NCBI GenBank assembly: GCA_044892505.1
Contig: CM097883.1
Coordinates: 158,596,001-158,660,000 of the forward strand
Direction: 5' to 3'
Source: Schmidtea nova
Lineage: Eukaryota
DNA length: 64,000 nt
Part shown: piece by piece, positions 1 to 4,115 of the stretch
Layout: each line of letters opens with the position of its first letter
Position numbering within the stretch: the first letter of the stretch is position 1
Position numbers and translations under genes: made by a program
The notes under the pieces: model-generated
What the model saw: the letters and a program-made list of their open reading frames with translations, nothing else
Database searches by the model: none
Told to the model about the DNA's origin: nothing

Positions 1-901
1 GAGTTGCCTTTCACTAACCCATTCTTCTTCGATAGTCCGGGACTAGATACAGAAGTATCCTCGAGAGGATACCGCTGTGATTCTCGTCATCCCAGTAGGG
101 AAAAGCCAGCCCACCCCCTTAGATACCAGTCTAGGAGTCTAGGAATGGTTACGACTTCTCCCCGTGCAAGAATGCTATCAACAAGACTGTCGATATCTGT
201 CTCGGTGAGCACATTGGCCCACCAAAAATGCATTAGTTTAAATTGTCAGATCTTTCACTCCGGTTGCCCAGTAGACCCTTTAATCCAGACTAATACACCA
301 CCGCATACGTCTTTTGTCCCATACTTCAATATGGTTACCTGAAGCACCCCATGGAGGCCCGTAATTGCGATTTCTCTTCATGCACTAACAGAACTATACC
401 GTCCTTAAATGTGCCAAGAGCGGTATCACTGCAAATACCCGGCCAACAAGACGTCGGCAGATGTCGGATACATTAGAGACACATTTTGGCAAAAATTTGA
501 TTGTTAGTCCCCAGCCAATTCCTGTAGCTAAAGAACACACTAAAATATCCGGGATCCCGTGAGAAGATAGCCTCCAAGGAGACGCACAAGATATTAAAAG
601 GGATATAATAGTTCACACCACGCGAGCTGAAAGCCTTTGCGGTTTAACAATACAATCAGATTAACTGATCCGAACCCTATTCTAGATTGATGCTAGTCAA
701 ATCGCAGTAAACTGCAACCCTCCATCACTGCATCTCTAGAACCAATAATTTTATTTCAGGTCCAGATAGAATTAGAACGTACTAGGTACGGAGCTAATTT
801 GCCGACTTCAATATTTTTCAGACCTCAATCTGGATGACCAGAATGATTATATCGATCGATAATAATAGTAAATGATTAAGGTTGTCTCAGAACTTGGTCT
901 A

Positions 902-1145
902 GATAAGATGTCGGTCAGATCATAGCCTAGTACGAGAGCCTGCAAAGGAATTAAACCTCGTCCAAGTAAGATGTCGGTCGAACCTAGTTGAGAATAAAAC
1001 CCGTTCATATTAGTTATTATTATGATAAGATGTCGGTCAGATCATAGCCTAGTACGAGAGCCTGCAAAGGAATTAAACCTCGTCCAAGTAAGATGTCGGT
1101 CGAACCTAGTTGAGAATAAAACCCGTTCATATTAGTTATTATTAT
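902..1145. repeat. Near-perfect 122-bp tandem duplication
   Basis: GATAAGATGTCGGTCAGATCATAGCC...CATATTAGTTATTAT begins at 902 and again at 1024; each unit also contains TAAGATGTCGGTC twice. Confidence 0.9.
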
Positions 1146-1262
1146 AAACTGATGAGGAACATAAAATGTATCAAGTTGATACCCTTCCATCAGTTTGGAT
1201 CGCCATACATTAACTATTAACATTTTGCAATGTGTCTAGATAAACCAGTTAATGAATGACTC

Positions 1263-1321
1263 GGGAATTAGTACAGTTCACCGAAGCAAACCGTTGCAGC
1301 TGGACCGCGTGCAGGTTTCCC
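1263..1321 (-). ncRNA. HDV-like self-cleaving ribozyme core
   Basis: Minus strand: P2 GGGAA / P3 ACC / L3 TGCACGC / P3' GGT / P1' CCAGCT / P1.1 GC / P4 ACGGTTTGC-TTCG-GTGAACTGT / J4/2 ACTAA (candidate catalytic C at 1271) / P2' TTCCC. Confidence 0.8.
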
Positions 1322-1381
1322 TATTAAACAACTTTGACAAAACAACCGTATTCCTACAACTCAGGCGCCCCGAAGGGTCTG

Positions 1382-1480
1382 AAGAGAGTCATAGTTACTC
1401 CCGCCGTTAACCAGAGCTTAGTTGAATTTCTTCACATTGACATTCATAGCACTGGGCAGAAATCACGTCGCGTCAAAGCC
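1382..1480 (-). rRNA. 28S: 28S (LSU) rRNA fragment, ~100 nt, divergent, just upstream of the R2 site
   Basis: Reverse complement GTGATTTCTGCCCAGTGCTATGAATGTCAATGTGAAGAAATTCAACTAAGCTCTGGTTAACGGCGGGAGTAACTATGACTCTCTT matches the conserved eukaryotic LSU segment with several substitutions. Confidence 0.92.
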
Positions 1481-2269
1481 GTTGGTTAGTAANNNNNNNN
1501 NNNNNNNNNNNNNNNNNNNNNNNNNNNNNNNNNNNNNNNNNNNNNNNNNNNNNNNNNNNNNNNNNNNNNNNNNNNNNNNNNNNNNNNNNNNNNNNNNNNN
1601 NNNNNNNNNNNNNNNNNNNNNNNNNNNNNNNNNNNNNNNNNNNNNNNNNNNNNNNNNNNNNNNNNNNNNNNNNNNNNNNNNNNNNNNNNNNNNNNNNNNN
1701 NNNNNNNNNNNNNNNNNNNNNNNNNNNNNNNNNNNNNNNNNNNNNNNNNNNNNNNNNNNNNNNNNNNNNNNNTGGTTGATGTATAGAAGTAGTTGGTTGA
1801 TGTATAGAACTAGTTGGTTAGTAAGGTATTGGTTGCTGGTTAGTTAGTTAGTTAGTTACTTGGTTAGTTAGTTACTTGGTTAGTTAGTTAGTTGGTTACT
1901 TGGTTAATGTGAAGAGATTGTTGGTTGATGTATAGAACTAGTTGGTTAGTAATGAATTGATTGCTGGTTAGTATGTATAGTTAGTTACTTGGTTGGTGAT
2001 TTGTGAATAAAGTTAGTAAGTAAGGAATTGTACTATTTGTTAACTAAGGGTATTGGTTTATTTGATATATAGGCAATAGGAAGTGATTGACACATGGAAC
2101 AATTTCCTAGTTGGTTGATGTATAGAACTAGTTGGTAACTTGTAAGTAACTAGTCGATTGTTGATTTGTGGATAGAGTCAGTTGGCATTTGATCAGTTAC
2201 TAGTCAGTGGTTGATTTGTGTGTGTAATGAGATTATTAGTTAGTTGATCGGTTTATTGCTGGTACTTAG
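1481..2269. repeat. Degenerate TTAG/TTGG-rich minisatellite spanning an N gap
   Basis: Repeated TAGTTGGTTGATGTATAGAAC, TTAGTTAGTTAG and TTACTTGG units; strongly G/T-biased plus strand. Confidence 0.8.
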
Positions 2270-3004
2270 NNNNNNNNNNNNNNNNNNNNNNNNNNNNNNN
2301 NNNNNNNNNNNNNNNNNNNNNNNNNNNNNNNNNNNNNNNNNNNNNNNNNNNNNNNNNNNNNNNNNNNNNNNNNNNNNNNNNNNNNNNNNNNNNNNNNNNN
2401 NNNNNNNNNNNNNNNNNNNNNAATTATTACGTTTATTTTTAAAAATTTATGTCATTAATTGATATTTTTTAACTTAGTATACAAAATTGTAAAAACTCTT
2501 GTTTAATAACTATTTTTATTCTAAATAAATTCAATATTTACATGTGTTTTATTTACTACATTTGATCATTTCCTTAAAAAAAACATCATATTGAAAAAAC
2601 AATTAGATTTGTATTTATTAGTTAAAAATTTTACTTGTGAAAAATATTTACTTGCGAAAAAATGTTTACTTTGTATTTATTAATTAAAAAATTTACATTG
2701 ATTTATTGTTAATAAATTTTACTTTAAAAAATTTCAAAAATAATTAATTATTCACACATTTTTCAAATATTACCTTAAAAAGTTCCTTTAAAAGCAATTC
2801 TTTTTTAAATTATGACATTAAAACTCACGTCTTTCTTAATTTACTTTTTTATTCTTAATTTACTTATAATTCTATTTATCATTAAATTCATAATTATTTT
2901 TAAAATTCTATCTTTAATTTATTTACTTTGATATTTTTCATAAATCCAGTACAAATTATTTTTTTTTTTTTTTAAATTCTAAGTTTAATTTACTTATTAT
3001 TTCC

Positions 3005-4115
3005 ATGCTTTTATTTAATGTATCATTTACTTGATAAATTCAATACAAAATAATGAGTGAATTATTTACTGAGTTTTGAAATTCGTATAGAATTTATTTA
3101 CTTTTTTATTTAATGTACCATTTTACTTGATAAATTCAATACAAAATAATGAGTGAATTATTTATTGAGTTTTGAAATTCGTATAGAATTTATTTACTTT
3201 TTTATTTAATTATCATAAATTTATTTAGATTTAATTATTTAGTTTAAAAATTTTTATTTTAAATATTTCCACGTTTTTATGTATTTTACCCTTTTTTACT
3301 GAGACTGTAATTTTACGTATAAAATTTTGATTTTTTCATGATTTTAATTTTTTGACCATTATTGTTTGCCTTTCAATTCTCAGTAGAATGGTATAAAAAT
3401 TATTGAATTCTGAGCATTTTTGATTTTTGGAATTTCCCCGAGTTGACCATTTTTACGTGTAAAAATTGGGTCGGAAAAGTCAAATTTTCATGTTTTTACT
3501 TTTTGAACCTTTTTTGTTCGCCATTCGATTCTCAGTAGATTGGTATAAAAATTATTGAATTCTGACCACTTTTTAATTTTTTGATTTTCGCCGACCAAAA
3601 TATTATTTTCAAAAATACCAGACTAAAAATCATATTCAAAATTACCAGAGTCTATTTTTGCCTGAAGAAAAATCTGGGAATTGAAAATCCTATTCAAAAT
3701 AATTTCAATGTATTTTACTAGTTTAAAAAAAAATTTACACGTGTTTTTTATTTACCATTAAAATTACAGTTCAAAATTATCAGAGTCTATTTTTGCCCTA
3801 GAAAATATCTGGGAGTTGAAAATCATATACAAAATACTTTAATGTTAATTTACTTGTTTAAAAAATTTACACGTGTTTTTATTTACCATAAAAGATTTAG
3901 TTCAAAATTACCAGAGTCTATTTTTGCCCTAGAAAAATATGGGAGTTGAAAATCCTATTCAAAATAACCAGACCAAAATCCTATACAAAAATACCAGTCC
4001 AAAATTTCGTGTATAAAAATTCCCTGTACAAAAAATCCAGAGTCCCTTTTTGACATAGAAAATCTCGGAGTAGAAATTCCTATACAAAATTACCAGAGTA
4101 AAAATCCTTTACAAA
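3005..4115. repeat. Tandem repeat region (two ~95-bp units at ~3010/3105; ~130-bp units at ~3640/3775/3905)
   Basis: CTTGATAAATTCAATACAAAATAATGAGTGAATT occurs twice; CCAGAGTCTATTTTTGCC...GTTGAAAATC occurs at least three times. Confidence 0.8.

Follow-up and report, generated by a model that had tools for sequence, protein, structure and literature searches.

An HDV-like ribozyme in a non-coding R2 derivative of Schmidtea nova that very probably cuts pre-rRNA 114 nt upstream of the R2 site

In Schmidtea nova a non-coding R2 derivative carries an HDV-like ribozyme whose cut in the pre-rRNA co-transcript, to judge from footprints in genomic DNA, namely the 5' ends of retrocopies, very probably falls 114 nt ahead of the R2 site. 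A wider reading, probable and held a little less firmly, is that R2 ribozymes here take their P1 strand 114 and 404 nt into 28S by way of element-encoded antisense strands that refold nascent pre-rRNA. With the P1 strand at -114 or -404 the retrotransposing RNA would carry 113-250 nt of rRNA; it could overwrite long target rDNA and would seed hundreds of 28S fragments genome-wide. One copy of the element lies in the window, the whole stretch of 64,000 nucleotides analysed. Positions with a minus sign are relative to the R2 site.

The core of the window copy, at 1321-1263 of the minus strand, is a nested double pseudoknot with all its parts where the preliminary description had placed them (Table 1), and both a check of positions and a descriptor bear that description out: the core descriptor without P1, composed with prior knowledge of the window match, has a single match in the 64 kb and none in 40 of 40 dinucleotide shuffles. 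The nested stems P2, P3 and P4 of an HDV-like ribozyme are all present, as are the active-site bases, U...CG in L3 (UGCACGC) and C..A in J4/2 (CUAA; the PMC6326823 descriptor has CRRA). The search for HDV motifs that had been proposed gave a divided answer, the custom descriptor matching the core but an Rfam scan of the locus returning LSU rRNA only, with the HDV family absent. The fold of 1255-1410 is not unusually stable (z = -0.70). The GC:GC pairing earlier noted for P1.1 is there, its two base pairs being paired in 18 of 18 cells with one copy having A-U for G-C, but the compensatory double change then read into it shrinks, against the PMC6326823 descriptor, to one inverted pair, with G-C in place of C-G and so a change of two nucleotides, a minor point since R2 ribozyme active sites are poorly conserved according to PMC3774820. 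Covariation in other copies had been named as a touchstone, and P3, P1.1 and P4 do covary among paralogues. With P2 left out of the count, old copies being out of register there in alignment A1, 5 of 14 pairs are altered on both sides in nine distinct cores (P3 A-U to G-C in two cores, P1.1 G-C to A-U in a single copy, and three P4 pairs), the basis for this being a few old paralogues of common ancestry. Across young copies the core is near-invariant. On its sequence, then, the core is a genuine, selected ribozyme at the R2 5' junction with its P1 5' strand borrowed from 28S.

Table 1. Features of the element copy in the window
Feature	Positions	Strand	Remarks
Non-coding body	1..1262	-	72 aa in the longest frame on this strand
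Degenerate second HDV-like core, -404 type	303..368	-	L3 CG to TG; P1' shortened
Internal relic of 28S -402..-377	785..809	-	head of the -404 lineage
122-nt tandem duplication in non-coding body	902..1145	-
P4 (UUCG loop), J4/2 (C1271, putatively catalytic) and P2'	1263..1295	-
P4	1294-1273	-	9 bp, UUCG loop
P1' CCAGCU and J1/4 GC (P1.1 with L3 GC)	1296..1303	-	copies' alignment, duplex energies
J1/4 GC	1297-1296	-
P2 5' strand, P3, L3 (UGCACGC) and P3'	1304..1321	-	core inspection, descriptor, covariation
L3 UGCACGC	1313-1307	-	P3 is ACC/GGT
P2	1321-1317/1267-1263	-	5-bp pairing
Element strand antisense to 28S -107..-79, predicted P1.2-like helix	1325..1357	-	energy compared with shuffles
Element start, UUCG hairpin	1358..1378	-	first ~25 nt common to the R2 family that would cut at -25
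28S segment -106..-2 relative to R2 nick, carried with element	1379..1483	-	without the -114..-107 P1 5' strand
GGCGGGA, 28S -28, P1 strand proposed earlier	1399..1405	-	28 nt upstream of R2 site

Where does P1' find its partner? GGCGGGA does lie exactly 28 nt upstream of the R2 site, as had been stated, but its proposed pairing with P1' is rejected: the P1' A that mismatches it is fixed in 30 of 30 copies found by BLAST and also in four diverged cores, another 28S sequence pairs fully, and copies start there. P1' is CCAGCC or CCAGCT (CCAGCY) in all 30, and GGCUGG at -114 is its perfect 6-bp complement. For CCAGCC this is the sole full complement within 1500 nt of upstream 28S in both rDNA types, and for CCAGCU it is the nearest of three to four over the same distance. 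Duplex energies are -8.4/-10.1 kcal/mol at -114 versus -4.1/-5.8 at -28, and in the nested-only ensemble of an rDNA copy the pairing probability is 0.00 for GGCGGGA versus 0.22-0.26 for the -114 strand. At the family level a P1 of 6-7 bp with G1-Y is present, GGCUGG(-114)/CCAGCY, in rDNA and full-length copies; in the old copies L126 and L127 P1' is mismatched against -114. GGCGGGA would be part of J1/2 and at most a minor alternative register. The minus-strand template 1440-1250 suggested earlier for transcription does not reach the -114 strand. A single C-to-A change in P1' would convert a -28 ribozyme into a -114 one, a one-substitution step that agrees with the site-shift model for R2 ribozymes in PMC3774820. 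GGCTGG at -28 in L030/L051 and L132, considered as an ancestral P1, is not favoured, L051 also having a -114 head, and the 'CCGGCC' core of L083, considered as support for -114, was dropped as a chimera starting at -401 with the motif from another R2's 3' region.

A 6-mer match alone is weak, and the 5' ends of retrocopies were therefore used as the test of -114. In 1.25 Gb of genome the exact core pattern, which may miss more diverged cores, has 33 matches: nine with at least 900 nt of upstream 28S (eight of them in rDNA units) and 24 dispersed copies, some of these non-independent through shared flanks or inverted pairs. The 5'-most 28S base falls at -102..-115 in 17 of the 24, and in 10 of those at -112..-115. 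The full tally is -115 (three copies), -114 (five), -113, -112, -111 (two), -109, -108, -107, -106, -102, -85 (four), -71, -30 and -27. None of the 24 has contiguous 28S beyond -115, and where a copy reaches -115 that extra base is T, the flanks being AT-rich. Diverged copies add two starts, at -112 and -115, and three others begin at -38, -59 and -83. The 19 flanks compared are unrelated to one another and to 28S, for which reason -114 is not another element's target site.

It was otherwise with an initial pile-up of 5' ends near -85, for the 28S junction between -88 and -87 turned out to be the target of other elements. Missing heads were therefore to be expected upstream, and the predicted split heads were found there, 0.2-10.7 kb away on the same strand, parted from their cores by antisense poly(A/T)-ended inserts (a YADD frame or ORF in 4 of the 14 analysed). 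A cut or stall at -85/-87 is rejected, the site being the target of these antisense retroelements. The four dispersed copies counted at -85 have no head within 20 kb; two have a common flank and one is near other 28S pieces. Several related antisense, 5'-truncated non-LTR families insert between -88 and -87, also inside dispersed R2 heads (L142-L161, L201), each with a poly(A) or poly(T) end that follows AATAAA; they may be LIN/R5-like. One such insert belongs to a repeat family that occurs on an rDNA contig too. There is also an array (L109-L125; G000:C2 start, C1 end), repeated many times near chromosome ends, in which 28S fragments from -87 pass at -4 into one and the same 5'-truncated piece of R2-like coding sequence.

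Native 28S keeps GGCUGG in a hairpin, -123..-87 (-18.3 kcal/mol), which a 6-bp P1 must outcompete. Just inside the element is a strand antisense to 28S -107..-79, with a duplex energy of -29.7 kcal/mol versus a shuffle mean of -16.1, reached by none of 200 shuffles; the best of ~594 28S windows is at -105/-110 for 16 of 20 distinct variants of this strand and elsewhere for four. When P1 is imposed on the fold, the helix is predicted to begin one base after P1 and to end 4-5 nt before P2. A structured J1/2 is known to activate or speed HDV-like ribozymes, and the large drz-Agam-2-1, with its P1.2 domain, likewise has one joining P1 and P2 (PMC4908430), but here the helix strands are host 28S rRNA and an element-encoded antisense copy. 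In the mechanism proposed, the element would be co-transcribed with rDNA; during transcription the antisense strand would invade the -123..-87 hairpin, free GGCUGG and pinch P1 against P2, upon which C1271 would cleave 5' of G(-114). Autonomous R2 protein acting in trans would bind the R2-derived 3' end of the RNA and reverse-transcribe it, 113-nt 28S leader included, at rDNA or off-target sites, and antisense non-LTR elements would later enter 28S between -88 and -87 in many dispersed heads, parting P1 from core.

Two further R2 lineages have their own 5' ends to compare. Family X (1072-aa ORF in L136) has a P1', UACUCCU, matching 28S -25, the site given for sea anemone B (PMC3774820), and six of its nine heads start at -23..-26, the other three, with a common flank, at -36. 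Family W has many frames of 1009-1015 aa with intact ORFs (L187 and L189 on G000:C55 and C39; L204-L233), a canonical 3' nick, a 5' junction at 28S -154 and a ~3.1 kb 5' UTR, and occurs both in rDNA and dispersed. Its head pattern has 213 matches; of the 30 taken first, which all come from C1 and include pairs, 28 begin within -405..-396 (mode -404, nine heads) and 26 end at -153..-156. The 5' UTR core, sought only after this pile-up had been seen, has a 10-bp P2, P3 GCC/GGT, L3 UUCACGG and, as P1', CUUCCU, the complement of GGGAAG at -404; the canonical CC:GG P1.1 occurs in a second subtype, together with a 7-bp P1 and P1' GCUUCCU. The first W bases past the junction are predicted to pair with 28S just 3' of P1. 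The family W ribozyme likely cuts 404 nt upstream of the R2 site. The 5' ends of the three lineages are each where their own P1' predicts: -25, -114 and -404.

Might the family instead use GGCGGGA at -28, G-A mismatch and all, as a slow ribozyme whose uncleaved transcripts supply the longer 28S leaders? The commonest R2 site is -28, a P1-mismatched R2 is on record from the horseshoe crab (PMC3774820), and two of the 24 dispersed copies, starting at -30 and -27, mean that this register may be used to a minor extent. Yet a mismatch fixed in all copies, a duplex ~4.3 kcal/mol weaker than that at -114, and so few retrocopies near -28 are poor credentials for a -28 ribozyme; uncleaved transcripts do not account for the sharp edge at -114/-115, and an antisense strand ending one base from the -114 P1 is left unexplained. 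We regard this alternative as very unlikely. Just as little credence is given to the idea that the -114 ends arise from a host rRNA nuclease, reverse-transcriptase stalling or 5' junction joining, the core being a relic. It has the lesson of -85/-87 in its favour, where a different mechanism did produce a false pile-up, but it would have to accommodate three lineages that end where their own P1' predicts, unrelated flanks at -114, a core near-invariant among young copies, and the location of -114 inside the native hairpin, when the place for a polymerase to stall would presumably be the hairpin's 3' base. Ribozyme cleavage at -114 is the reading retained.

In rDNA the host element, family A, is a non-coding insert of 0.84-0.98 kb ending at the canonical R2 nick, and its 3' 630 nt have 87% identity to the 3' end of an R2 element encoding a 1025-aa protein (best solved-structure match 8gh6, E 2e-132). 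Because it is non-coding, has its 3' junction at the canonical 28S nick and resembles at its 3' end R2 elements with ORFs, it is, as read from sequence features, a non-autonomous, SIDE-like R2 derivative. No ORF-bearing element with a -114 ribozyme was found among 18 R2-type loci (from 92 protein matches) and the earlier loci. Among the full 3' ends listed, 15 of 16 precede T, several of them a TAGCC-like sequence. Like the Drosophila R2 SIDEs (PMC3414825) the element is non-coding with a 5' ribozyme, an R2-derived 3' end and insertion at the R2 site; unlike them it is longer (0.84-1.6 kb), has mosaic bodies and a long 28S leader, and has most of its copies (24 of the 33 with the exact core) outside rDNA. 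A group I intron at this rRNA position is rejected in view of the R2-nick end with its 1-nt deletion and the dispersed retrocopies.

The window copy itself is not in rDNA. The preliminary description had its ribozyme at an R2 junction, which is right for the kind of ribozyme, an R2 5' junction one, but not for this copy, which is dispersed and has 28S -106..-2 only. That segment reads CTCTCTTCAG, like the host's uninserted 28S target (TTCAGG/TAGCC, the slash being the nick). With a start at -106 only the mismatched -28 register is left for P1, and the window has no upstream head in the 23 kb that follow. Of the earlier 'slow or dead', dead is probable: the copy is likely inactive because -114..-107 has been lost, not because of the G-A mismatch that had been blamed. 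The clipping may stem from insertion or from later rearrangement, given that the element sits between the arms of an inverted duplication (window 1790-4110 versus L031, 96-98% identity) in simple-repeat-rich DNA. Its head is that of the family; its body is a different one, found in 3 of 30 loci, which extends 178 nt beyond the window start and whose 3' ~1 kb has 91% identity to the DNA that follows an R2 ORF fragment (L077). One of the three copies with this body, the sister L021, runs as far as the canonical 28S junction. The second core in the body is likely inactive. These R2s have long 3' regions that seem to be put together from heads captured from other R2s, and L077 has two such HDV-like cores and a relic of 28S -122..-90.

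How far from the R2 site have such ribozymes been known to cut? In PMC3774820 (Eickbush, Burke and Eickbush 2013) the sites are at 0 and from -9 to -36, with planarian R2 predicted at -28, and a 2026 review has ~28 nt as typical for R2. The ribozymes considered here are alike in nested double-pseudoknot core, 28S P1 5' strand, P1 of 6-7 bp and uniform 5' junctions, but with sites at -114 and -404 their P1 strands would be omitted from the assay templates of that study, which began at -95; standard templates of that kind would score such ribozymes dead. A literature search confined to open papers, and without Repbase or Fig. S2 of PMC3774820, found no R2 cut site beyond -36, so that the known reach of R2 ribozyme cleavage would be widened from 36 nt to some 400 nt. 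Kojima et al. 2016 (PMC5035012) list the planarian R2-1_SM, R2-2_SMed and R2NS-1_SMed, alike in having several R2 lineages per genome with one widely dispersed; the portion of that paper drawn on describes no ribozyme or cut site for its families, and family W, found both at the canonical nick and dispersed, is likened rather than equated to them. The same paper has 5' junctions 110-130 bp upstream for the fish R2Gs/R2Bs, compared with -154 for family W, and long leaders may explain such upstream-shifted junctions. If the wider reading is true, rDNA overwriting may be what is seen in the -154 junction and in the mosaics of type I and type II alleles, and ribozyme cut sites can be read from DNA alone by way of off-target retrocopies. 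These elements would also be natural test cases for the bearing of leader length on R2 5' junction formation, which is open for R2-based gene insertion (PMC11331408, PMC13580325).

Two 28S/rDNA types are present, a feature that, like NeSL-type elements next to 28S, suits a planarian. Five uninserted 28S targets from both types (L033, L034, L032, L037, L039) read TTCAGG/TAGCC and not TTAAGG/TAGCC, and a literature search found the variant target 16-mer in no paper; the old element copy L075 retains TTAAGG, and R2s still insert at the nick. In G000:C10 (L068-L070) two of three inserted type-I rDNA units have type-II alleles at -44/-43, upstream of -28. These were possibly written in by the 28S leader; the allele mosaics could also be ordinary rDNA gene conversion. 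Elsewhere in G000:C10 (~109000, L040) an rDNA element copy breaks off within J4/2, where several kb of arrayed TTAGGG cap it. L039:4534-9999, antisense to 28S and located downstream of the R2 site, is a NeSL-like element that has two ORFs, with domains for Ulp1 protease and RT.
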